64,000 nt of DNA from Parcubacteria group bacterium (GCA_016188775.1 JACPHC010000004.1:12704-76703); one strand, 5' to 3'; positions 8,666 through 63,312 are shown, counted from the first letter of the stretch. The notes: generated from the sequence alone by a model not told the origin. Made by a program: numbers and translations.

Positions 8666-8676
8666 TGTGGATAACT
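8666..8676. promoter_or_regulatory. TGTGGATAACT 11-mer (contains a perfect DnaA-box complement TGTGGATAA)
   Basis: Exact 11-mer also at 15711-15721 and 15868-15878. Confidence 0.4.
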
Positions 8677-8740
8677 AAATTGAGCTAATTTTAGCGTTAT
8701 TTACTAATTTCTATCTATAATTTCTATCTATTTAAAGAAT

Positions 8741-8784
8741 AAACTTACATATTTACGGACGATCGTCCGTAAATATGTAAGTTT
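8741..8784. promoter_or_regulatory. perfect 44-bp palindrome centred on CGATCG (AAACTTACATATTTACGGACGATCGTCCGTAAATATGTAAGTTT)
   Basis: Reverse-complement identity checked by eye. Shares the core TTACGGACGATCGTCCGTAA with 40198-40243. Confidence 0.7.
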
Positions 8785-8794
8785 AATAAATTTT

Positions 8795-9355
8795 TTATTG
8801 AAGATGAAATCTATTTTTTAAATCCAAATCGATGTCTGTTTCTTTAACAATTAAAAATCTTGCATAAGCTCTCAAATTAAAAAATTCAATCACGAAATCA
8901 ATTTCATTTTTGCATTCATAAGGATAAATAAAAACGCTTTTTTGCAAAGGATAAAAACCTAATTGTTTTAATTGAAAAGTTAAAGCATTTCTTTCGCGTC
9001 TTAAACGTTCGGGAATATCAAAAATTACCACTCTCCATAATTTATCCCAATGGGGTGGTTTTTTAATTCGCATTGTTTTTAAATTATATCGCAAAAATTC
9101 TTTTTTGCCTTCTCTGTTTAAAACTAAACTAACTGTTCCGTCTTTATTTTCTTGATAATTAATTAATTTTGACCGATAAAGACGATGAATAGATTCTCTC
9201 AGACTACGATAATTAATTTTCTGCCATTCTTTGATAGCGGATTTTAAAATTCGAAAATAAGAATCTGGTCTGCGCGTTAAAGATAAAGCAACTCCCGTGC
9301 CTAACAAAATAATAATTTTTCTAGCCACCGGTCCCAATCTTTTTTTATTTGACAT
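8795..9355 (-). CDS. winged-helix plus Cas2-fold domain protein (PaaX-like putative regulator)
   Basis: The C-terminal segment VVIFDIPERLRRERNALTFQLKQLGFYPLQKSVFIYP resembles the Cas2/PaaX-C core. There is no cas1 and no repeat array nearby. Confidence 0.5.
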   Translation of the reverse strand: MSNKKRLGPVARKIIILLGTGVALSLTRRPDSYFRILKSAIKEWQKINYRSLRESIHRLYRSKLINYQENKDGTVSLVLNREGKKEFLRYNLKTMRIKKPPHWDKLWRVVIFDIPERLRRERNALTFQLKQLGFYPLQKSVFIYPYECKNEIDFVIEFFNLRAYARFLIVKETDIDLDLKNRFHLQ

Positions 9356-9407: not shown

Positions 9408-9521
9408 TATTTCAATGATATTTCAATATTTTTAAAATTTTTAAATTTACATGTTTATTTACGATCGTCCGTAAATATGTAAATTTTAAAAATAATATTG
9501 AATATTGAAATGGAATGGAAA
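9408..9521. repeat. long imperfect inverted repeat (~55-bp arms) centred on ACGATCGTCCGTAAATATGTAAATTT
   Basis: Left arm tttcaatgatatttcaatattttt...acgatcg pairs with right arm cgatcg...aataatattgaatattgaaatgg. Confidence 0.6.
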
Positions 9522-10231: not shown

Positions 10232-11446
10232 TTATCTAAACGATCCGACTAATTGATAAATCGGAACGATAATGGAAACGGCGATGCCGCCGATGATAAG
10301 ACCAATAACCAGAAGCAAAACCGGCTCAATCAGAGAAACTAAATTTTTGAGAGAATTATCAACTTCTTCTTCGTAAAATTCCGATAAGCTGACCAGTATT
10401 TCTTCAAGATTGCCGGACCGCTCTCCCACGCCGATCATATTGGTGACCAAATGCGGAAAAAGTTTCGGTTCTCTTTTCAACATCGCGGCCAGAGTGATGC
10501 CTCGAGCCACGCCGGATTCGGCTGACTTAAGATAGGCTGATTTATAGAGATCATTGCCGATGGTATCGGCCGTGATCCGCAAAGAATCCAAAAACGGCAC
10601 CGCGCTTTTTAAAAGCGTGGCCAGAACCCGGGTGGAACGAGCCAGGGACACTTTTTTTATCAAATCGCTCGCAACCGGCAAATGAAAAAAGATTTTTTCG
10701 TACAAAAATTTTTTCCCGGCCGAGGAACGCCAAACCAGAACAGCGGAAAAAATTAAACCAATAACAAAAATCGCTATATATAAAGGATAAGCGGTGATAA
10801 AATCGCTGATGTTTACCAAGACTTGAGTAATGGCCGGAAGTTTGACCCCGGTTTCTTTAAAAGTTTTCGTCAGACGCGGCAAAACAACCGTAAACATCAA
10901 AGTTAAAACTCCAAAAGCCATAATGATAAGAATGGAGGGATAAATCATCGCCGATTTGACCCGGCGTTTCAGGGAGTATTCGGATTTCATTTGAGAAGAA
11001 AGTTCGGCAAAAACCTGCTCTAAATTTCCGGAAGCCTCGCCGGCTTTAACGAGACTGACAAATAAAAGAGGAAAATCTTTCGGAAATTTTTCAAAAGCCG
11101 CTGACAAAGGCTGGCCGCGCTGGAGCTCATACCGAATCTGGGAGAAAATTTTGGCCAGTATCGGTTTTTCCGCGTCCGCGATCAAAATATCAATCGCTTC
11201 GATAATCGGAATGCCGGCGCGAAGCATCGTGGCCAGATGTCTGGTAAAAACGATTTTATCGTCAATGGAAAGCCGGCCAAAAATAAAACCGGCAAAAGGA
11301 ATTTTTGCCTCGTTTTTTGGCGCCACTCGAATCGCTTGCCAGCCTTGACGTTTAATGAAATCCAGAACCGCCTCTTCGCTCGCGGCTTCAATTTCTCCTT
11401 CTTGTAAAATTCCTTGGGAATCGGACGCGGTATAATTATAAATCAT
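10232..11446 (-). CDS. pilC: type IV pilus / type II secretion platform protein (GspF/PilC family)
   Basis: 404 aa with three TM regions and two GspF-like repeats (e.g. LATMLRAGIPIIEAI, LSLIEPVLLLVIGLIIGGIAV). Confidence 0.88.
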   Translation of the reverse strand: MIYNYTASDSQGILQEGEIEAASEEAVLDFIKRQGWQAIRVAPKNEAKIPFAGFIFGRLSIDDKIVFTRHLATMLRAGIPIIEAIDILIADAEKPILAKIFSQIRYELQRGQPLSAAFEKFPKDFPLLFVSLVKAGEASGNLEQVFAELSSQMKSEYSLKRRVKSAMIYPSILIIMAFGVLTLMFTVVLPRLTKTFKETGVKLPAITQVLVNISDFITAYPLYIAIFVIGLIFSAVLVWRSSAGKKFLYEKIFFHLPVASDLIKKVSLARSTRVLATLLKSAVPFLDSLRITADTIGNDLYKSAYLKSAESGVARGITLAAMLKREPKLFPHLVTNMIGVGERSGNLEEILVSLSEFYEEEVDNSLKNLVSLIEPVLLLVIGLIIGGIAVSIIVPIYQLVGSFR

Positions 11447-13165: not shown

Positions 13166-13825
13166 TTAAACGATTAAATTTATAAACTGAGTATGCCTTA
13201 TTATTATATCACCGAATAAAACTACAATCAAAGCCGCGACCAGCCAAAACGGAGTCAAAATTAATTCGCCCTGATTCTCGGGTTTAAATATCTTTAGAGC
13301 CAACAGCCAAAAAACCGCCAAAACAGGAACTAAAAAAATATAAATCATAAAACCGGGCCAACCGCCGACCAGTCCCCCGATCGCGGCAAAATAAACATCT
13401 CTTAATTCAAAACGGTTAAAATATTTGTAAAAAATAAAAATCAAAGAACTTAAAATTAAAGAAGCGATAGCGGCAAAAAAAGGCGCTTTGATAAAATGCT
13501 GCCAGGAGTATCGCAAAAAATAGCCGGAGAACGGCGTTTCCAGGCCGAAAATTTTAAGGCCCGGGGTATGAGGCGGAAAAACATAAATCATCACCGGGCT
13601 GGTTTTCCAAACGGCGTATTGCGCGAAAGTAAAAATCAAAGGCTGGGCTAAAAAAATAATTAAAATAAGCCCGAGGGCGAAAAATACGTATTTAGGGTTT
13701 AAAATTTTATATTTTAAATCGGGCCATCGGAAACGAAAAAAAGATATCGCTAAAATAAAAAATAATAAAAAACCGTAAAGAATGGATGGACCGTGAAAAT
13801 TAAAAAAAAGATTTATGAATTTCAT
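13166..13825 (-). CDS. polytopic membrane protein, possible divergent prepilin peptidase (A24-like)
   Basis: Multi-TM 219-aa protein directly upstream of pilB in the same operon. Has Asp-containing loops (RWPDLK, FGDIII) but no canonical GDVK motif. Confidence 0.35.
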   Translation of the reverse strand: MKFINLFFNFHGPSILYGFLLFFILAISFFRFRWPDLKYKILNPKYVFFALGLILIIFLAQPLIFTFAQYAVWKTSPVMIYVFPPHTPGLKIFGLETPFSGYFLRYSWQHFIKAPFFAAIASLILSSLIFIFYKYFNRFELRDVYFAAIGGLVGGWPGFMIYIFLVPVLAVFWLLALKIFKPENQGELILTPFWLVAALIVVLFGDIIIRHTQFINLIV

Positions 13826-20394: not shown

Positions 20395-20417
20395 ATTTTC
20401 CTAATTTAAAAGGTGTT

Positions 20418-20438
20418 CTAAAAATTTTTAGGATACTT
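20418..20438 (-). promoter_or_regulatory. promoter-like motif CTAAAAATTTTTAGGATACTT, ~25 bp upstream of the 18382-20394 gene
   Basis: Exact match to the motif family. Confidence 0.35.
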
Positions 20439-20440
20439 TT

Positions 20441-20490
20441 TTTATTTATTTCCAATATACTGGTATACCAGTATATTGGAAATAAATAAA
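20441..20490. repeat. perfect 50-bp palindrome (TTTATTTATTTCCAATATACTGGTA | TACCAGTATATTGGAAATAAATAAA) directly after the pilin gene stop
   Basis: Perfect reverse-complement symmetry read directly. Candidate long hairpin terminator or attenuator. Confidence 0.7.
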
Positions 20491-20491
20491 A

Positions 20492-20959
20492 TTATTGAAC
20501 TTCAATAACCCCGGATTTATAAATTGTCATTGTTTTGGAAAGTCCGGTTTGAGTGTTTTGGATAATCAAAGTATTTTGGCCCGAAGAGAAAGATTCGACT
20601 TCTCCGATTAATTTAGTGAAAATAATTTGCGACGATGGAAAGGTTACGCTGGAAAACGTATAACCCGAAGAAAGAGTGGAAACAAAATTAGTTCCCGCGC
20701 CGGCCGAATACGGCGCCTGAAATAGAGTGAAAGAAGTCGAGTCAAAAAAAACGCCGAATTTGGCGGCTGTGGAACCGGATTCGGCAAAGCCGGTCATTGA
20801 TTTGACCCGGGCTTCAAAAAACGTGTTTTTAATTTGAGCGACCGCGGCCGAAAGTTCCGTGTCAATAATGGGTTTGACCGCGTTTAAACTTATCAAGGCG
20901 GCCAAAATCGCGAAAATCGCGACGCTGATGGAAATTTCAATGAGAGTAAAGCCCCGCAT
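20492..20959 (-). CDS. type IV pilin-like protein
   Basis: MRG|FTLIEISISVAIFAILAALISL. Confidence 0.7.
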   Translation of the reverse strand: MRGFTLIEISISVAIFAILAALISLNAVKPIIDTELSAAVAQIKNTFFEARVKSMTGFAESGSTAAKFGVFFDSTSFTLFQAPYSAGAGTNFVSTLSSGYTFSSVTFPSSQIIFTKLIGEVESFSSGQNTLIIQNTQTGLSKTMTIYKSGVIEVQ

Positions 20960-23910: not shown

Positions 23911-23949
23911 TTGACGCTAAAATTAGATTTTTGGTATACTTATTTAAGT

Positions 23950-23977
23950 AAGTATCTTAAAAATTTTTAGAATACTT
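23950..23977. promoter_or_regulatory. bidirectional promoter-like palindrome AAGTATCTTAAAAATTTTTAGAATACTT between divergent pilB and pilin genes
   Basis: Motif family member in both orientations. A variant CTAAAATTAGATTTTTGGTATACTT lies at 23915-23940. Confidence 0.4.
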
Positions 23978-24022
23978 ACTTGTCGTTAATTTATAATAAA
24001 AAGCGAAGCTTTTGATTAAATT

Positions 24023-38772: not shown

Positions 38773-40200
38773 ATGAAATTTCCAAAATTAAAATTACTTC
38801 CGACATTTATCATCGCTTCAGGAACGATTTTTTTGCTTTTGACTATTATCATTATTCAGATAGCCGAACCGCTTCTTAAAAATAATTTTCTGGAAGAAAT
38901 AGGACAAAACACGGTCGTTTTTGTCAACCGACTGGCTAACACCGTTCTTGTCCAAAAAAATTTTGAAGATTACGGCTCAGAGGAATCTCAAAAAAATTTC
39001 CGCGAATTCAGGCGCGCGCTAGTCGTGCCGAATTTAGCCAGATTAAAAATCTGGAATCCCGAGGGCGTGATTATTTTTTCCGACGAGTCCAGACTACAAG
39101 GGAAAAAGTTCGCCAACTCATTCGCTCTCGAAGCTTTGGATCTTTCAGTCAAAAATAAACTCATCAATACTCTGGAACTGGCGATCGAAACGAACGAATA
39201 CGCTTTTGACAAAGGCATCGGCCAAGTCTTTGATATGGCCGTGCCGATTACTTTCGGCCTCTCCAGAAAACCAATCGGCATTGTCGAGGTTTTTATCCGC
39301 ACCGGCCCATTGGAAACAAGAATCGCCGATTTTAGGTTTGCGCTGGCGACCAGAATATTTATCGCCACGACTCTTTTTTTCATAATTTTAACCGGCATTA
39401 TTGTCCGGGCTTCAAAAACAATCCGCGATCAGCAAAACGAGCTTAATAAATACGCCAGGGAGCTTGAAGAAAAAGTGCTGGAACGGACAAAAAACCTTGA
39501 AGAATCTCATCGAAAAGAAAATATGCTCAAAGATCAGTTTGTTTTCATTATTTCCCACGAATTATCAACGCCGGTAACCGCGATATCTTGGAATATCAGC
39601 TCTTTGAAAAAAAGCAAAACATTGGAATCTTTGAGTCCAGACGCTCAAGAAATGTTTGATAATTTGGAAAAAAACACAATGACGCTATGGAGAATAATCA
39701 GAAATATTGTCCAAATTCACCGCGGCGAACTGGGCAAAATCCAAATATCCAAATCTGAATTTGATATTCACGCTCTTGCCAAAGAAATAATTAAAAACAA
39801 TCAAGCCTTTGCCCAACTGAAAAAAGTAAAACTTGCCTACGAGGACGAGGGCGAGCCTTTAACGATCAAATCCGATCCGGAAAGAATCAAAGAAGTTTTA
39901 AACAATTTAATATCAAACGCGATACAATTTAACGGCCAGGGAGGCAAAGTCAACGTGAAAATGAATAAAAATGATTCTGAAATCGTCTTTAACGTCGAGG
40001 ACACCGGAATAGGAATAAGCGAAGAAGAAAAGCCGAAGGTTTTTGAAAAATTCTGGCGATCCGAAGACGCGGCTAAAATCGAAGGCTCCGGCCTCGGTTT
40101 ATTTATATCTAAATTTATCGTCGAAACGATGGGCGGAAAAATTTGGTTTGAATCTAAAAAAGCCATTGGCTCGACTTTTTCTTTTTCTTTGCCCATTTAA
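38773..40200 (+). CDS. sensor histidine kinase
   Basis: H-box FVFIISHELSTPVTAI. ATPase boxes DTGIGISEEE and GSGLGLFISKFIVETMGGKIWFES. Confidence 0.85.
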   Translation: MKFPKLKLLPTFIIASGTIFLLLTIIIIQIAEPLLKNNFLEEIGQNTVVFVNRLANTVLVQKNFEDYGSEESQKNFREFRRALVVPNLARLKIWNPEGVIIFSDESRLQGKKFANSFALEALDLSVKNKLINTLELAIETNEYAFDKGIGQVFDMAVPITFGLSRKPIGIVEVFIRTGPLETRIADFRFALATRIFIATTLFFIILTGIIVRASKTIRDQQNELNKYARELEEKVLERTKNLEESHRKENMLKDQFVFIISHELSTPVTAISWNISSLKKSKTLESLSPDAQEMFDNLEKNTMTLWRIIRNIVQIHRGELGKIQISKSEFDIHALAKEIIKNNQAFAQLKKVKLAYEDEGEPLTIKSDPERIKEVLNNLISNAIQFNGQGGKVNVKMNKNDSEIVFNVEDTGIGISEEEKPKVFEKFWRSEDAAKIEGSGLGLFISKFIVETMGGKIWFESKKAIGSTFSFSLPI

Positions 40201-40243
40201 ATTTACACCTTTACGGACGATCGTCCGTAAAGGTGTAAATTTA
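40198..40243. promoter_or_regulatory. perfect 46-bp palindrome centred on CGATCG (TAAATTTACACCTTTACGGACGATCGTCCGTAAAGGTGTAAATTTA) between convergent genes
   Basis: Shares the 20-bp core TTACGGACGATCGTCCGTAA with 8741-8784. Overlaps the kinase stop codon. Confidence 0.7.
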
Positions 40244-47197: not shown

Positions 47198-47239
47198 TTC
47201 ACTACAATAGTATTACGATCGTAAGTTCATTGTAGTGAA
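47198..47239. promoter_or_regulatory. CGATCG-centred imperfect palindrome, family 2 (TTCACTACAAT-N6-ACGATCGT-N6-ATTGTAGTGAA)
   Basis: 11-bp arms and the ACGATCGT core match. The 6-nt internal segments are non-complementary. Confidence 0.6.
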
Positions 47240-47343
47240 AATGTCTGTTTTCAGTCGAAGGCGCGAGATAATCTTCACGAGGCGATTTCCTCTTGCAAAA
47301 GCTATTGCATAATAAAATTATTCGTGCTATATTGGATAATCGT

Positions 47344-47793
47344 ATGATAAAAGAACCAAAAATTTACGAAATTGCTTATCATCTAAATCCGGATTTAACC
47401 GAAGAAAAAGCGCTGGAAGCCAGCCGGGAAATTTTAAATTTTATCGGCTCGTACGAGGGCGAAATTAAAGAAATCAGCGAGCCCCAAAAAAGAAAATTGG
47501 CTTACCCGATCAATCATTTCCGCCATTCTTATTTTGGCTGGGCGACTTTTCATATTTCTCCGGCCGGCCTTGAAAATTTAAAAGCTAAACTGAAATACAG
47601 GCCGGAAATTTTAAGATACCTGATAATAACTTTTGAAAAACTTACTTCTAAACGGAAAAAAATAGCCGCTTTTCCAAAATTAGAACTGCCAATGCTGGAA
47701 ACTCCGGTTCCAAAAAACGAAAAAACTATTTATGAAAAAGAGAAAATAGGATTGGAGGAACTGGACAAAAAATTGGAAGAAATATTAAAATAA
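47344..47793 (+). CDS. rpsF: 30S ribosomal protein S6 with a K/E-rich C-terminal extension
   Basis: KIYEIAYHLNPDLTEEKALE...YFGWATFHISPAG. Start at MIKEPK (47344) preferred over the track start 47293. Confidence 0.85.
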   Translation: MIKEPKIYEIAYHLNPDLTEEKALEASREILNFIGSYEGEIKEISEPQKRKLAYPINHFRHSYFGWATFHISPAGLENLKAKLKYRPEILRYLIITFEKLTSKRKKIAAFPKLELPMLETPVPKNEKTIYEKEKIGLEELDKKLEEILK

Positions 47794-47798
47794 AAAAA

Positions 47799-48266
47799 AT
47801 GAATCTCAATAAAATTTTTATAATTGGAAACTTAACCAGAAATCCGGAAAAAAGAACCACGCCGCAAGGCCAAACCGTGGTCAGTTTCGGCGTCGCCACC
47901 AATAAAATCTGGACCGACCAACAGGGACAAAAACAGCAAAAAACAGAATTTCATAATGTCGTGGCCTGGCGACGGCTGGGCGATATAGTCGCCCAATATC
48001 TCAAAAAAGGCAGTATGATTTTTGTCGAAGGCCGGCTGGAAACAAGATCTTGGGAAGATAAGGAAGGAATAAAACGTTACCGGACCGATATTATCGCGGA
48101 AAATATCCAAATGGGGCCAAAAAGCGCCAACGCTATTGTCAAACCTTCGGGCCAAGAGGAATATAACGTCGGCTCGGAGCCAATCATTGATTCACAAGCG
48201 GCCGATGAAGAATTTTCATCCGTAAAATCCGGGGATGAAATAGAAGTAAAAGAAATTCCCTTTTAA
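47799..48266 (+). CDS. ssb: single-stranded DNA-binding protein
   Basis: MNLNKIFIIGNLTRNPEKRTTPQGQTVVSFGVATN...FHNVVAWRRLGDIVAQYLKKGSMIFVEGRLETRSWEDKEG. Acidic tail ending IPF. Confidence 0.9.
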   Translation: MNLNKIFIIGNLTRNPEKRTTPQGQTVVSFGVATNKIWTDQQGQKQQKTEFHNVVAWRRLGDIVAQYLKKGSMIFVEGRLETRSWEDKEGIKRYRTDIIAENIQMGPKSANAIVKPSGQEEYNVGSEPIIDSQAADEEFSSVKSGDEIEVKEIPF

Positions 48267-48287
48267 TAGATGCGAAATTCCTCTTTC

Positions 48288-48379
48288 CGTCATTGCGAGA
48301 AATGAAGCGAAGTGTAATAACGAAGCAATCCCAAAGATTGCCGCGTCGCTCTCATTTTCATTCGCTCCTCGCAATGACA
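48288..48379. repeat. MITE-like foldback repeat, copy 5 (degenerate), inside the rpsF-ssb-rpsR cluster
   Basis: CGTCATTGCGAG...GAAGCAATCCC...GATTGCCGCG...CTCGCAATGACA. Confidence 0.7.
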
Positions 48380-48423
48380 GAATGGTTTATTTAAGCGAAA
48401 CACATCACATATAAATAACAAAT

Positions 48424-48633
48424 ATGCAAAAACAATGCTATTTTCACCAGCAAAGCAATGTCGCGATTGATTACAAAAATATCGAAATTTTGCGGCGTTT
48501 TATTTCTTCACAGGCGAAAATTATGCCGCCCAAAAGAACCGGTCTTTGCCGCAAACATCAATCTTTGATAGCCCAAGCCATAAAAAGAGCCCGTTTTATG
48601 GCTCTGCTTCCGTACACGAATTTACAGGAATAA
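48424..48633 (+). CDS. rpsR: 30S ribosomal protein S18
   Basis: IDYKNIEILRRFISSQAKIMPPKRTGLCRKHQSLIAQAIKRARFMALLPYT. Confidence 0.9.
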   Translation: MQKQCYFHQQSNVAIDYKNIEILRRFISSQAKIMPPKRTGLCRKHQSLIAQAIKRARFMALLPYTNLQE

Positions 48634-48691
48634 TTTATTAGACCTAATAATTTATTAGACCTGTCGAGTAATAACCTTTCTACCGCAATTT

Positions 48692-48747
48692 CAAAATTTT
48701 ACTACAATCAATAATACGATCGTGAGCTTCATTGTAGTAAAATTTTG
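48692..48747. promoter_or_regulatory. CGATCG-centred imperfect palindrome, family 2 (CAAAATTTTACTACAAT-N7-ACGATCGT-N7-ATTGTAGTAAAATTTTG)
   Basis: 17-bp arms match perfectly. Lies between convergent rpsR and recA. Confidence 0.65.
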
Positions 48748-48784
48748 AATCGCACTATGAAAATTATTACGCAAAAACCTATTG

Positions 48785-49801
48785 CTAAATCGCCGCAACT
48801 GCCCGCGAGGCCTCGCGGGTTTTTTTTGCCACTTCCTCCATCACTTTGGGATTTTCTTTAAAATATAAACGAGCCGCCTCCATTCCTTGCCCCAATTTCG
48901 CGTCTTCGTAAGTAAACCAAGCGCCGGCTTTTTTGATAACGCCGTAGCGAGCCGCGGTATTGATGATATCGGAAAAACGGGCAATGCCTTCGTTATACAT
49001 AATGTCAAACTCGGCGATTTTAAACGGCGGAGCGACTTTATTTTTAACCACTTTGACTTTCACCCGAGAACCGATAATGTCATCGCCTTTTTTAATCTGT
49101 CCGGTTCTTCGCACATCGATGCGAACCGATGAATAAAATTTCAAGGCTTTGCCGCCCGGCGTGGTTTCCGGATTGCCGTAAAAAACGCCAACTTGCATTC
49201 TGATCTGATTAATAAAAATAATCGAGGTACTGGTTTTAGCCGAAATGGCGGTCAATTTTCTCAAGGCCTGGGACATCAAACGAGCCTGCAGGCCGACATG
49301 ATGAGCGCCCATTTCCCCTTCAATTTCGGCCTTGGGCGTTAAAGCCGCGACTGAATCCACCACTATCACGGCCACAGCGCCGGAACGAACCAAAGATTCC
49401 ACGATTTCCAAAGCCTGCTCCCCTGTATCCGGCTGGGATATTAAAAGATCATTAATTTTAACGCCGATCTTGGCGGCGTAATCCGGATCCAGAGCGTGCT
49501 CGGCATCAACAAAAGCCGCCTGTTCGCCTCTTTTCTGCGCTTCAGCCACGATATGCTGGGCTAAAGTCGTTTTACCGGAAGATTCGGGACCAAAAATTTC
49601 AACAATTCTGCCTTTGGGCACCCCGCCCACGCCCAAAGCAATATCCAAAGAAATCGAGCCAGTCGGAATCGCGTCAATATCCACTTTTCTCGCTTCCCCC
49701 AGCTTCATAATGGCCCCCTCTCCAAAACGCTCTTTAATTTCGCGAATCGTCTCGTTTAAATTTTTATCTTTAACTTCTTCTTTTTGATTTTTTGAAGTCA
49801 T
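48785..49801 (-). CDS. recA: recombinase RecA
   Basis: [45 protein letters not shown]. Confidence 0.97.
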
Positions 49802-50145
49802 TGTATCACAAATATTTTCCTGGTAATAATATCCGAACGATTATTTTGATCTTCGGCTTTTAAAACGATTTTATTCAAGCCCGAAGCTAAATTAATCTTT
49901 TGATTGAAAACGCCGTCTTCGCCAATATATAATTTTTCGTTGTTGATTGTCAAATTTTTTATTTGACCTTTAATTTTGCCTTCGATTTTAATCAGACGCG
50001 ATTCAGTTCTAATGTCTTCTTTGGGGTTGAGCAAGATAATTTTCGGCCCTTGAATAAAAAATTTACCCGTGGCAAAAAAATAAAAAGAAAAAAATAAAAT
50101 AATTAAAAAAGAAAAAAATAAACCTAAAAAACTAAAACTTTTCAT
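49798..50145 (-). CDS. small secreted/membrane-anchored protein upstream of recA (possible Ig-like/Gmad2-type fold)
   Basis: N-terminal hydrophobic segment. 4-bp overlap with recA. Fold assignment is weak. Confidence 0.45.
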
Positions 50146-52282
50146 TTTCCATTTCTTGATTAGATTCTTTCACAACCAAAATTTCGCGAGGCTTGGCCCC
50201 ATCGCCGGGTCCGATTATTCCCCGCGTTTCCATTATATCCAATAATCTCGCGGCTCGGGCGTAGCCGACCCGGAGCCGACGCTGAAGCAATGAAGCCGAA
50301 GCTTTGCCCATTTCAATAACCAAATCTTTCGCTTCTTCATAAAACTCGTCTTCTTCATCCGAATCCGCGTCAAATTTTTCCTCCGCTTTAGTTAAATTAA
50401 AATCCTCGGTTTTTGATTCCGCCTCATCCCATTCCAGGGATCCGATATAATCGGCGGTTTTTTTCGCCTCTTCTTCGGAAACATAAACGCTTTGAATTCT
50501 CTTTGGTTTTGAAGCGTCGCCGGCCAAATAAAGCATATCGCCTCGACCCAAAAGTTTTTCCGCTCCGGCCATATCAAGAATAGTGCGCGAATCCACCAAA
50601 GAAGCCACCTGAAAAGCGATCCGACTGGTGATATTGGCTTTAATAAGTCCGGTCACGACTTCCACCGAAGGCCGTTGAGTGGAAACGATCAAATGCATGC
50701 CGACGGCTCTGGCCATTTGGGCGATTCTGATGATTGACCCTTCCACCTCCCGCGGATAAGAAGCCATCAAATCCGCCAGCTCGTCAATAACAATTACAAG
50801 ATAAGGCATAATTTCTTCTTTATTTTTTCTGGCTTGCCTGTTGTATCCTTCTATGTCTCGGACTTTCGCGTCGGATAAAATGACGTAGCGCCGCTCCATT
50901 TCCGAAGCGGCCCAGCGAAGAGAAGCCACGGCTTTTTTCGGCTCAATAATCGTTGATGAAAGAAGATGCGGAATTCCGTTGTAAATTCCAAGCTCGACTC
51001 GTTTGGGATCGATCAAAAGAAGCCGCAAAGTCTCGGGAGAATTGCGCCAAAGAAAAGTGGTTAAAATACTGTGAATGGAAACTGATTTTCCCGCTCCGGT
51101 TGCCCCGGCCACCAACAAATGCGGCATCTTGGCCAGATCGGCGAAAATCTGCGAGCCGGCCACATCCCGTCCCAAGGCGAAAGCGAGAGGAGAAGTTAAA
51201 TTGACAAAAATCGGATTTTCTAAAATATTCCGGAGCCGCACCAGAGTTTGAGACCGATTGGGAATTTCAATGCCAACCAAAGACCGGCCCGGAATCGGCG
51301 CTTCAATTCTTAACGGATAAGCCGCCAAAGCTAGAGAAAGATCGGAATTTAACGCGGTGATGCGGGAAAGTTTCACGCCTTCCGCCGGCTTAAGAGTGTA
51401 TTGAGTGACGGTCGGGCCGACATTAACTTCGGACATCTCCACTTCAATGCCGAAATTTTCAAGGGTTCTTTTTATAATCTGCGCTCGGGCGCTGATGTCG
51501 CCTTGGGACGGAATGCCGCTTTCCGGAGTTAAAATATCAAGCGGCGGCGACTTGTACCCTTGGGAAAACCGGTCTTCTTTGACTTTTTTCGGTTTAAATT
51601 CAGCTTCCGATTCTCGGGCCGATTCGGCTTTCTCTTTCAAATTTTGGCTTGAGACTCCGCCAGGTAAATTGATTTTTAAACTTTCTTTTTTAGGGCTGAA
51701 TTTTTCCAAAGTTTTGGAAACGACCGCGGCGATTTTTTCCTCCAAAACCGGAATTGCTTTTTCATCCGTATCTTTAATATTTTCAGTTGATTTCCGATAA
51801 CGCCAAATCGGCATATTAATCGTAATTAAAAATGAAATAATAAGAGCCGCGATAAATAAAATCGAACTCGCCCAAAAACCGAAAATAAAAGAAAAACCGT
51901 CGGCAATAATCATTCCGAGATAACCGCCGGCGTCCAACTTATCATTGGCGACAAGCGTGAAAAATCCCAGAAAAGAAAATTTAAAAACGACTCCGCCAAT
52001 AACGCTGGCGTAAGCCACTTTTTCATTAAGCGTTCTGACGAAAGAGAAACTTAACAAAAAAAGCACTGTTGGAAGCATAAAAAAACCTTTTTTGCCTAAA
52101 AGAAAACTGGCGCCTTCAAAGAAAAAACCGCCGAAACGGCCGGCCAAACCAAAAGCGGAAAGCAAAAAAATAACCGCTAAAGTGAAAAAAATAATGGAAA
52201 TGACGATTTTTTTAACTTCCGGATGTAAAGAGGGGTTATTTTTTTCGTTTTCCAGTTTTTGATTTTTATTTTTTTTCGCCAT
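50132..52282 (-). CDS. ftsK: DNA translocase FtsK/SpoIIIE
   Basis: N-terminal TM helices. Walker A HLLVAGATGAGKSV. C-terminal winged-helix gamma domain (LLQRRLRVGYARAARLLD). Confidence 0.9.
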   Translation of the reverse strand: MAKKNKNQKLENEKNNPSLHPEVKKIVISIIFFTLAVIFLLSAFGLAGRFGGFFFEGASFLLGKKGFFMLPTVLFLLSFSFVRTLNEKVAYASVIGGVVFKFSFLGFFTLVANDKLDAGGYLGMIIADGFSFIFGFWASSILFIAALIISFLITINMPIWRYRKSTENIKDTDEKAIPVLEEKIAAVVSKTLEKFSPKKESLKINLPGGVSSQNLKEKAESARESEAEFKPKKVKEDRFSQGYKSPPLDILTPESGIPSQGDISARAQIIKRTLENFGIEVEMSEVNVGPTVTQYTLKPAEGVKLSRITALNSDLSLALAAYPLRIEAPIPGRSLVGIEIPNRSQTLVRLRNILENPIFVNLTSPLAFALGRDVAGSQIFADLAKMPHLLVAGATGAGKSVSIHSILTTFLWRNSPETLRLLLIDPKRVELGIYNGIPHLLSSTIIEPKKAVASLRWAASEMERRYVILSDAKVRDIEGYNRQARKNKEEIMPYLVIVIDELADLMASYPREVEGSIIRIAQMARAVGMHLIVSTQRPSVEVVTGLIKANITSRIAFQVASLVDSRTILDMAGAEKLLGRGDMLYLAGDASKPKRIQSVYVSEEEAKKTADYIGSLEWDEAESKTEDFNLTKAEEKFDADSDEEDEFYEEAKDLVIEMGKASASLLQRRLRVGYARAARLLDIMETRGIIGPGDGAKPREILVVKESNQEMENEKF

Positions 52283-52398
52283 AAAAAACTATTTTCAGTT
52301 TAAAACAAAAAAGACTTCTTGTGAAGCCTTTCTTGTTTTTTAATTCTCAAATTTATCACGTTAGACAAAATCTTATTATTTCACCATTTCACGTATTT

Positions 52399-52446
52399 AT
52401 TTTCACTACAATGCATTCACGATCGTGAGTTGATTGTAGTGAAAAT
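52399..52446. promoter_or_regulatory. CGATCG-centred imperfect palindrome, family 2 (ATTTTCACTACAAT-N6-ACGATCGT-N6-ATTGTAGTGAAAAT)
   Basis: 14-bp arms match. Lies between the ftsK start and the rpoC stop. Confidence 0.65.
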
Positions 52447-63159: not shown

Positions 63160-63217
63160 AATTTTATTATATTATATCAATTAATAAAAAATAACAAAAC
63201 TATTTATATTTTCTTTT

Positions 63218-63259
63218 ATTTTACATATTTTCAAACGATCGTTTGAAAATATGTAAAAT
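63218..63259. promoter_or_regulatory. perfect 42-bp palindrome centred on CGATCG (ATTTTACATATTTTCAAACGATCGTTTGAAAATATGTAAAAT)
   Basis: Reverse-complement identity verified. Arms share TTACATATTT with 8741-8784. Confidence 0.7.
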
Positions 63260-63312
63260 TTAAAATTTTATAATCTTTCTAATGATTGTTAAAAAATGTT
63301 AAATTAATTTTA

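Follow-up and report, generated by a model that had tools for sequence, protein, structure and literature searches.

CGATCG-centered palindromes paired with a PaaX-related winged-helix protein in Patescibacteria: a candidate operator system

A 64,000-nt stretch of a Parcubacteria group bacterium metagenome-assembled genome (MAG) (GCA_016188775.1 JACPHC010000004.1:12704-76703; G+C content, 41%), referred to below as the window, carries three copies of a palindrome, family 2, with common arms and a CGATCG center. A first-pass annotation of the window, which distinguished these copies from another set of CGATCG-centered palindromes (family 1), likened them to a spaced protein operator rather than a simple hairpin. 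Are they operators and, if so, of which protein? To our knowledge, almost nothing is known of gene regulation in the candidate phyla radiation, whose organisms are uncultured. We find family 2 tied to the gene of a small protein, mini-PaaX clade B, and we lean modestly toward reading the sites as operators of this protein, which is predicted to be a regulator specific to Patescibacteria. The two would be the first candidate pair of a cis-element and its predicted trans-factor in this radiation.

The pattern ACTACAAT-N(10-30)-ATTGTAGT has exactly three matches in the window, at 47201-47236, 48701-48738, and 52405-52440, and none in 100 dinucleotide-preserving shuffles of it. Apart from these sites, the two 8-mers occur once in the 64 kb, as a solitary ACTACAAT at 13221. 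Every copy is centered on ACGATCGT, giving the consensus ACTACAAT-N6/7-ACGATCGT-N6/7-ATTGTAGT, and all three fall within 5.3 kb. Copy 1 (47198-47239; as palindromes, the copies are assigned no strand) reads TTCACTACAAT-AGTATT-ACGATCGT-AAGTTC-ATTGTAGTGAA. Copy 2 (48690-48749), TTCAAAATTTTACTACAAT...ATTGTAGTAAAATTTTGAA, has 19-nt arms and a noncomplementary linker of 7 + 7 nt, and copy 3 (52399-52446) reads ATTTTCACTACAAT-GCATTC-ACGATCGT-GAGTTG-ATTGTAGTGAAAAT. T-runs precede the arms and A-runs follow them on both strands.

These results reproduce the coordinates and the common arms and center of the first-pass annotation and refine two of its details. What the arms share is ACTACAAT/ATTGTAGT; the 13-mer TTTTCACTACAAT is exact in copy 3 alone, with ATTCACTACAAT in copy 1 and TTTTACTACAAT in copy 2. 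The 6 to 7 nt between arm and center, described as noncomplementary, are so only in part: upon folding, internal loops of 4x4 (copy 1), 6x6 (copy 2), and 2x2 (copy 3, for the + strand as RNA) appear, and above each of them a short apical stem closes a GATC loop. The folding z-scores of the three copies against shuffles range from -3.8 to -7.4.

The motif recurs well beyond the window. A scan of one genome per species for ACTACAAT-N5-8-CGATCG-N5-8-ATTGTAGT, with about 0.5 chance matches estimated, yielded 13 loci, found in Wolfebacteria (one MAG has four copies), Nomurabacteria, Saccharibacteria, and further Patescibacteria; the same scan returned one orthologous locus in three Anaerolineae MAGs. 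A slightly looser pattern found 47 loci in metagenomes. Recurrence elsewhere, on which the first-pass annotation had staked its family, was thus seen at 60 outside loci, in genomes and metagenomes alike. Removal of duplicates left 56 nonredundant sites, 53 of them outside the window. The viral contigs scanned contained no match, and a phage origin of family 2 was rejected on that ground.

Outside the window, the spacer between arm and center is far from free. It is perfectly complementary in 34 of the 53 outside sites, and those 34 carry 21 different spacer sequences. When 35 distinct sites with 6-nt spacers were aligned, double compensated changes were found at all six pairs, in 9 to 21 sequences each. 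Paired cells made up 95.1% of the spacer compared to 77% in shuffles, none of 500 shuffles reached the observed value, and the signal was lost when the partner column was slid. The free spacer that the first-pass annotation took for the hallmark of family 2 is therefore not borne out. Because most outside spacers are perfectly complementary, the bubble is a lineage variant rather than a defining feature; the noncomplementary linker is particular to the lineage of the window and a few more (loci L072 and L073). Taken together, family 2 sites are hairpin-capable palindromes in which the arms and the CGATCG tip are conserved and the inner stem covaries. Half-site chimeras, composed of the left half of one spacer type and the right half of another, were present at L014b, L021a, L023a, L051a, and L049. 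Covariation alone is no proof of a functional hairpin, since hairpin-templated correction during replication could keep short palindromes symmetric.

Which gene, then, accompanies the motif? Paired sites 660 to 817 bp apart enclose homologous genes of ~200 codons in L014, L017, L021, L023, L040, and L051. Their product, clade B, is a protein of about 190 to 205 amino acids in which a winged helix is joined to a Cas2-like domain (Pfam PF20803, PaaX_M). A clade B gene with an adjoining site was also found in L025, L033, L043, L044, L050, L056, L060, and L062. PaaX_M is the commonest Pfam family beside the sites, accounting for 7 of 36 nonredundant genes with a site 3' of them and 3 of 45 with a site 5', where we estimate that ~0.04 adjacencies would arise by chance; TrmD (3), CsoR-like proteins (3), and NusA (2) come next. 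The site downstream of the clade B gene has a different spacer in each lineage, always complementary. Family 2 is strongly and specifically tied to the clade B gene, with a site on either side.

The association also holds in the reverse direction. Loci were fetched via the protein, namely, L072 and L073 for clade B and L064, L066, L068, L075, L076, and the window for a paralogue, clade A. Palindromes centered on CGATCG, CTATCG, or CGATAG lie on both sides of the gene at every locus. At L072 and L073 the arms are TTTACTAAAGT, related to TTTACTACAAT, and the linkers are noncomplementary, as in the window. Since the window has ACTACAAT sites but a clade A gene only, its genome should encode clade B elsewhere. 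A profile search with clade B proteins found such a gene, P0355 (HYV52_02825; MBI2451243.1), on a different contig of the window's own MAG, and its product carries the clade B signatures QRFYNLLSYLKRQG and FDIPE...QKSVWVG. The same MAG encodes clade A (HYV52_01420), RecA, and HYV52_02825. Both clades also co-occur as P0172 and P0356, which we take to belong to one Azambacteria genome.

The clade B protein resembles repressors of the PaaX type. Its predicted structure (predicted local distance difference test score [pLDDT], 84.8) matches E. coli PaaX (PDB 8a39) and a Jannaschia PaaX-like protein (3l09) best, followed by winged-helix repressors (PadR, LmrR, and the ArsR family), the centromere-binding proteins TubR and AspA, and Cas2; the N terminus is modeled as a winged helix of the PadR/ArsR type. 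In the clade A model, the C-terminal domain matches Cas2 structures and PaaX, and the N terminus is modeled at low confidence. PaaX_M scores 73.3 bits for clade A of the window and 46 to 65 bits for clade B (cutoff, 24). The NCBIfam PaaX profile TIGR02277 scores 26 to 41 bits, far below its cutoff of 264.55, and is covered at positions 31 to 158 of 279; NCBIfam Cas2 scores 21 to 33 bits against a cutoff of 24.5. Proteins of both clades end after the Cas2-like domain (186 to 205 amino acids, compared to ~300 for PaaX) and lack the C-terminal effector domain, PaaX_C, so they are not true PaaX. Like the Cas2 of CRISPR-Cas systems, they have a C-terminal Cas2 fold with an N-terminal beta1 Asp motif, the Asp of FDIPE being retained and aligned with that of a solved Cas2 structure. 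Unlike it, they carry a fused winged helix, accompany single palindromes rather than arrays, and have no Cas1 domain among the called genes of the protein-selected loci or among the families of the tested genes beside sites. The proteins are neither true PaaX nor CRISPR Cas2. NCBI names P0244, P0303, P0321, and P0344, which score just above the Cas2 cutoff, "CRISPR-associated endonuclease Cas2," and JGI calls others PadR/PaaX regulators; the former label, from the annotation pipeline PGAP, is probably wrong where it is applied to family members.

The paralogue has palindromes of its own. The clade A gene of the window (8795-9355, - strand; HYV52_01420, MBI2450982.1), identified by tblastn with clade B proteins, encodes 186 amino acids with a winged helix and a Cas2-like domain. 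Family 1 palindromes, again without assigned strand, lie 9 nt downstream of its stop codon (8740-8785; TAAACTTACATATTTACGGA-CGATCG-TCCGTAAATATGTAAGTTTA) and 82 nt upstream of its start (9438-9491). Compared with the first, a further copy at 40198-40243 has ATAT replaced by ACCT on one arm and the matching change on the other, i.e., two compensated changes, and a family 1-like palindrome (63204-63273; TTTTACATATTTTCAAA-CGATCG-TTTGAAAATATGTAAAA) precedes an RNase_H_2-type exonuclease gene. Aligned on the center, the arms of the two families agree at about 5 of 18 positions, plus TACA at 10 to 15 nt from the core. Family 2 arms are conserved across Patescibacteria, even between lineages with clade B proteins of just 37 to 60% identity, and each family goes with its own paralogue; family 2 is therefore not the drifted form of family 1 that the first-pass annotation had considered as an alternative.

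Clade A is 60 to 70% identical across Parcubacteria (622 matches), and its synteny with rplT-infC, smpB, and argS is kept in L064, L066, and L076. The order trmD, family 2 site, csoR-like gene is likewise found in three nonredundant lineages. The stability of both arrangements argues for vertical inheritance rather than mobility. Around clade A, L064, L068, L075, and L076 have lineage-specific palindrome arms, and L066 has a short ATTTG-CTATCG-CAAAT on either side of the gene; at the orthologous loci L064 and L076, the arms differ by compensated substitutions. Because the arms vary completely and the putative recognition helix is nearly invariant, only the CGATCG core would be readable by sequence for clade A. 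Strong promoter-like matches at L064 and L076 (TTGAAA-18-TATAAT, with 11 of 12 matches and a TG extension, and TTGGAA-18-TATACT) have their -35 hexamer starting immediately 3' of CGATCG. Protein bound to this palindrome would occlude the -35 element, a classical position for autorepression. Variant centers read CTATCG on the sense strand in three cases and CGATAG in one, too few for a significant strand preference, and a strand-specific variant was dropped. Downstream of the clade A gene, L068 contains tandem related palindromes (10558-10931), two of them centered on CGATCG and a third with the same arms and a CAGTCA center.

How might clade B act on its sites? Because the motif family flanks the clade B gene on both sides, the sites are most likely bound by clade B. 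The first-pass view of a protein-binding site rather than a plain terminator gains from the tie between the motif and a PaaX-related winged-helix family, from the spaced operator of PaaX itself, and from the reversed orientation of the T- and A-runs. PaaX represses its own gene through TGATTC-N27-GAATCA, 6-bp inverted repeats 27 bp apart (PMC9493321). PaaX of E. coli W and Pseudomonas sp. Y2 (PDB 8a39, 3l09), like clade B, has an N-terminal winged helix followed by a Cas2-like PaaX_M domain, which is the middle domain of PaaX. The putative clade B operator would be similar in geometry, the 8-nt arms of family 2 being 18 to 20 bp apart. We propose that clade B dimerizes through its Cas2-like domain, so that two winged helices would read the outer half-sites (TTT)ACTACAAT and ATTGTAGT(AAA), ~26 to 28 bp apart from center to center, with the CGATCG core beneath the Cas2-like dimer. 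Binding would repress or insulate adjacent transcription units, and looping between bracketing sites is possible. The core and the paired spacer might serve cruciform extrusion, or the symmetry might stem from arm-to-arm correction.

The parallel with PaaX has limits. No paa genes are nearby, family 2 has an invariant CGATCG core and a paired spacer that covaries, the gene has sites on either side, and the clade A/B family, as far as the sampling goes, occurs in Patescibacteria only. An invariant core, a covarying stem, gene bracketing, and paired paralogues are unusual for a PaaX-type repressor with an inverted-repeat operator, and they leave room for something more novel. The full-text literature, searched for the arm sequences, for PaaX with Cas2-like domains, and for CGATCG palindromes in Patescibacteria, contained no description of such a system. 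The pair is conserved across Parcubacteria, Wolfebacteria, Azambacteria, Nomurabacteria, and Saccharibacteria and is testable with recombinant protein alone. It also links a Cas2-fold domain to palindromic DNA outside CRISPR and bears on the relation between Cas2 and PaaX.

The genes around the window sites were called as groEL, groES, a GT4 glycosyltransferase gene (- strand), copy 1, rpsF-ssb-rpsR (+ strand), copy 2, recA-orf115-ftsK (- strand), copy 3, and rpoC and rpoB (- strand). This order agrees with the placements first reported (upstream of rpsF, between rpsR and recA, and between ftsK and rpoC). The three sites bracket two convergent operons, rpsF-ssb-rpsR and recA-orf115-ftsK. The GT4 gene (start, 47087) and rpsF-ssb-rpsR diverge from the region that holds copy 1. 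Copy 2 separates the convergent rpsR (stop, 48633) and recA (stop, 48785), i.e., two 3' ends, and copy 3 begins 14 nt past the rpoC stop codon, with 116 nt between its end and the ftsK start downstream. The clustering in a housekeeping region noted at first holds within the window; in other genomes the neighbors are diverse. Shortly upstream of copy 2, the rpsR stop codon is overlapped by a tandem direct repeat, (A)ATAATTTATTAGACCT x2 (48630-48662). RecA of the window (MBI2451021.1) is 75% identical to the nearest other RecA, so beyond identical short Logan contigs, there are no close relatives with which to compare the locus.

Two terminator-like hairpins lie close to the sites. The region's strongest in a terminator scan, GCCCGCGAGGCCTCGCGGGT followed by T8 (48801-48828, + strand), serves the rpsF operon and overlaps the last recA codons on the other strand. 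Because it lies downstream of copy 2, that copy falls inside the predicted 3' untranslated region (3' UTR) of rpsF-ssb-rpsR. The second, with an A-tract, a 17-bp stem, and a U-tract (52300-52345, - strand), is situated between copy 3 and ftsK; it is likely the rpoBC terminator, which would put copy 3 in the rpoC 3' UTR. The family 2 sites themselves were rejected as intrinsic terminators: their stems are A+T-rich, the T- and A-runs are on the wrong sides, and the scan that lists 48801-48828 omits them.

Several other assignments were also discarded. For the arm's TACAAT, picked twice by the promoter scan as a -10 box, -35-like hexamers at 16 to 18 nt upstream are not enriched, being present in 13 of 104 flanks and, at the control offset, in 9. 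For the arm's TTGTAG, considered as a -35 element, a -10 element can be seen by eye at 16 to 17 nt in L017 and L025, but the pattern does not generalize and fails the scan criteria. An SOS/LexA-type box, prompted by ssb and recA, is contradicted by the absence of such a regulon among ~80 nonredundant neighbor genes elsewhere and by the position of copy 2 downstream of recA. With Rfam 15, only a tRNA was found in the whole window, and scores near the sites were 21 to 28 bits against cutoffs of 50 to 229.

The placement of copies 2 and 3 raises an alternative that we consider improbable, namely, that family 2 is transcribed as an RNA hairpin with a C(GAUC)G apical loop in 3' UTRs or between cistrons, which stabilizes or processes mRNA and is perhaps bound by the Cas2 domain, which resembles an RNA recognition motif. 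The mRNA of the partner gene would then carry one hairpin per end and be subject to feedback. A conserved loop on covarying stems is the classic signature of structured RNA, all three window copies fold far better than shuffles, at z-scores of -4.7 to -7.4, and some Cas2 proteins are RNases (PDB 3exc). Copies 2 and 3 each follow a stop codon and precede a terminator-like hairpin, so they should form part of the transcript ends of rpsF-ssb-rpsR and rpoBC, and many sites elsewhere begin 3 to 15 nt past a stop codon. However, copy 1 occupies a divergent promoter region, no Rfam family matches, and the majority of sites are perfect palindromes as DNA and contain hardly any G.U pairs. On the sense strand of codirectional sites, there are 16 A.C mismatches compared to 4 G.U pairs, and sites with a single mismatch split 2 to 1; we set this asymmetry aside as a test of RNA versus DNA, as informative sites are too few. 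Conserved clade B outer arms and a DnaA box 3 nt outside many sites (see below) likewise point to duplex DNA.

One site bears on this reading. Its spacers at L023 (2653-2686) and L051 (580-613) read AACCCG|CAAACC or AACCTG|CAAACC. The mismatches are all transitions, so that 4 to 5 G.U/G.T wobbles allow full pairing of the opposite strand. Pairing of L023a/L051a is thus kept on one strand only, which favors an RNA hairpin, but that strand is antisense to both neighbor genes.

Several findings weigh against clade B operators of the conventional kind. Copy 2 is flanked by two 3' ends, and copy 3 has a stop codon on one side and a terminator-like hairpin on the other, both unusual settings for an operator, and no promoter-like match at a convincing register lies beside the window's three family 2 sites. 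Some sites fill the whole gap from stop to start (3 nt and 8 nt away in L014), and one, in L010, is inside an open reading frame (ORF). The spacer covaries nearly perfectly, and orthologous sites switch spacers yet stay complementary, which a simple dimer on duplex DNA does not predict. The arms at clade A differ wholly between lineages next to a nearly invariant putative recognition helix. In the window's genome, the link between family 2 and clade B is drawn by analogy. On the side of an operator on duplex DNA stand the positions kept between lineages, the low copy number near the gene in most lineages, and a deficit of convergent sites, though a weak one: sites are codirectional in 23 cases, divergent in 7, and convergent in 4 (background: 150, 43, and 53, respectively), so that convergent ones make up 4 of 34 against 53 of 246.

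A more novel reading is that Patescibacteria carry a hitherto unrecognized two-component genetic system, in which single-copy winged-helix and Cas2-like proteins of at least two paralogous clades recognize their cognate CGATCG-tip palindromes as extruded hairpins or cruciforms, not as plain duplex, and may cut or join them at the CGATCG tip. We hold this to be unlikely, if somewhat less so than the RNA hairpin. It would account for covarying stems, half-site chimeras, and gene bracketing. If true, it would work as an analogue of REPIN-RAYT with a Cas2 fold at its base, or else as a global regulator that is structure specific, and its hairpin-specific recognition would define a new class of repeat-and-partner system.

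A related possibility, as doubtful as the RNA hairpin, treats family 2 as a set of hairpin-forming repeats of the REP/REPIN kind whose partner is not an HUH enzyme: acting as a nuclease, the winged-helix and Cas2-like protein would copy, correct, or recombine them at the CGATCG tip. RAYT genes usually have several REPINs flanking them, with family-specific coevolution (PMC3337134). As in REPIN-RAYT systems, a single-copy, vertically inherited gene is flanked by its own palindromes, paralogues have specific repeat families, and hairpin-capable repeats occupy intergenic regions and 3' UTRs, with long symmetric palindromes and chimeras (PMC3337134, PMC3116915). The partner gene is bracketed by its own repeats in every lineage examined, one genome holds two repeat families and two paralogous proteins, and discrete spacer types recur within genomes, with chimeras joined exactly at CGA|TCG. 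Strong stem covariation, seven copies in the 64-kb window, the site inside an ORF, copies in 3' UTRs, and the retained Asp of FDIPE in the Cas2-like domain fit as well. Unlike the IS200-like RAYT, however, the partner is not an HUH/Y1 protein (Pfam, NCBIfam, and fold searches gave PaaX_M, Cas2, and winged-helix matches only), and PaaX-family proteins are repressors for which nuclease activity is not known. REPIN-RAYT systems number tens to hundreds of copies per genome and move; here, copy number appears low in most lineages sampled, with 2 to 3 palindromes per 20 kb near the partner gene compared to 7 in the 64-kb window, and 9 of the 11 CGATCG-centered palindromes in five protein-chosen 20-kb loci adjoin the gene. 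Diverged lineages share site positions, no sign of transposition was seen, the loci sampled contain no presence/absence polymorphism or target-site duplication, and the clade A promoter overlaps its palindrome. We retain operators of clade B as the preferred reading.

Could the sites instead serve replication? Of 140 flanks, 20 have a DnaA-box 9-mer (TGTGGATAA/TTATCCACA, at most one mismatch) no more than 30 nt outside one arm, compared to ~1.4 expected from a background rate of 0.345 per kb, and 14 of the 20 lie exactly 3 nt outside the arm. They occur at L005, L009, L014, L021, L023, L028, L033, L034, L040, L043, L047, L049, L051, L055, and L062. Typically, they accompany the site that follows a clade B gene and the one in the order trmD, site, csoR-like gene. 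A site of replication or chromosome organization, working with DnaA or acting as a domain boundary or centromere-like element and not controlling individual promoters, would suit this enrichment, which includes sites downstream of clade B genes in several lineages. It would also suit the three window copies within 5.3 kb that bracket whole operons, the likeness of the winged helix to the centromere binders TubR and AspA, and the GATC in the core. We nevertheless rate it as very unlikely: the family 2 copies of the window have no nearby DnaA box, box-bearing sites are spread over at least three contigs of one MAG (L005, L009, and L014) and so do not mark a single origin, and no par or dnaA genes were present among the neighbor genes examined.

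The window itself has three perfect DnaA boxes, at 8666, 15711, and 15868. The first lies past the family 1 palindrome that follows the clade A gene, at a distance of ~70 nt. The other two are 157 bp apart in the intergenic region at 15.5 to 16.0 kb, where GC skew goes from about zero to negative; this region may be an origin or a dnaA-type control region.

The CGATCG core recalls HIP1 (GCGATCGC) of cyanobacteria, an 8-mer that is hyperabundant genome-wide, coding regions included (PMC5861425, PMC4390886). Literature searches on CGATCG palindromes in Patescibacteria found only cyanobacterial HIP1 papers. The family 2 core contains CGATCG as HIP1 does, and some sites read GCGATCGC. Unlike HIP1, CGATCG is underrepresented in the window (17 observed versus 23.6 expected, 7 of the 17 being centers of long palindromes) and matters only as the center of 34- to 56-bp palindromes. 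In L064, L068, L073, L075, and L076 combined, CGATCG occurs 11 times against ~24 expected, each time as a palindrome center. GATC and most palindromic hexamers are strongly depleted both in the window and in these five loci (counts in the five loci: GATC, 76 versus 322 expected; GGGCCC, 0 versus 19; TGATCA, 1 versus 20), so the absence of CGATCG outside palindromes is not special. A HIP1-like or restriction-site explanation was rejected given this shared depletion.

Two groups of outside sites stand apart. At L010 (4393-5775; also L039 and L053), a Wzy_C (O-antigen ligase-like) ORF contains an ACTACAAT site in frame, which encodes ...LQFNGDRRSIVV...; its protein also holds three repeats of ~25 amino acids (REYYVLHSVMHRKKKSLRPTLYW, RKYCVLRSVLRRKNKSLRPTYYW, and REYCVLRRAEKPLHPTYYW), which may derive from another inserted DNA repeat. 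The Anaerolineae loci L004 (826-861), L007 (1397-1432), and L013 (2387-2422), of 67 to 68% G+C, have in common CTGACTACAATTTGTATACGATCGTATACAAATTGTAGTCAG, an A+T-rich palindrome perfect over 42 bp, which is followed after ~50 nt by a gene whose product starts with MKFTDGYW...; no mini-PaaX gene is nearby, and the palindrome may be an unrelated operator or a transfer.

Palindromes of other kinds were also noted in the window. A perfect 52-bp palindrome with another center, TTTTATTTATTTCCAATATACTGGTA|TACCAGTATATTGGAAATAAATAAAA (20440-20491), directly follows the stop codon of the gene at 20492-20959 (- strand). A third palindrome family, (G/A)TA(T/C)CTTAAAAATTTTTAG(A/G)ATAC, occurs in two intergenic regions, at 20403-20446 and 23946-23981.

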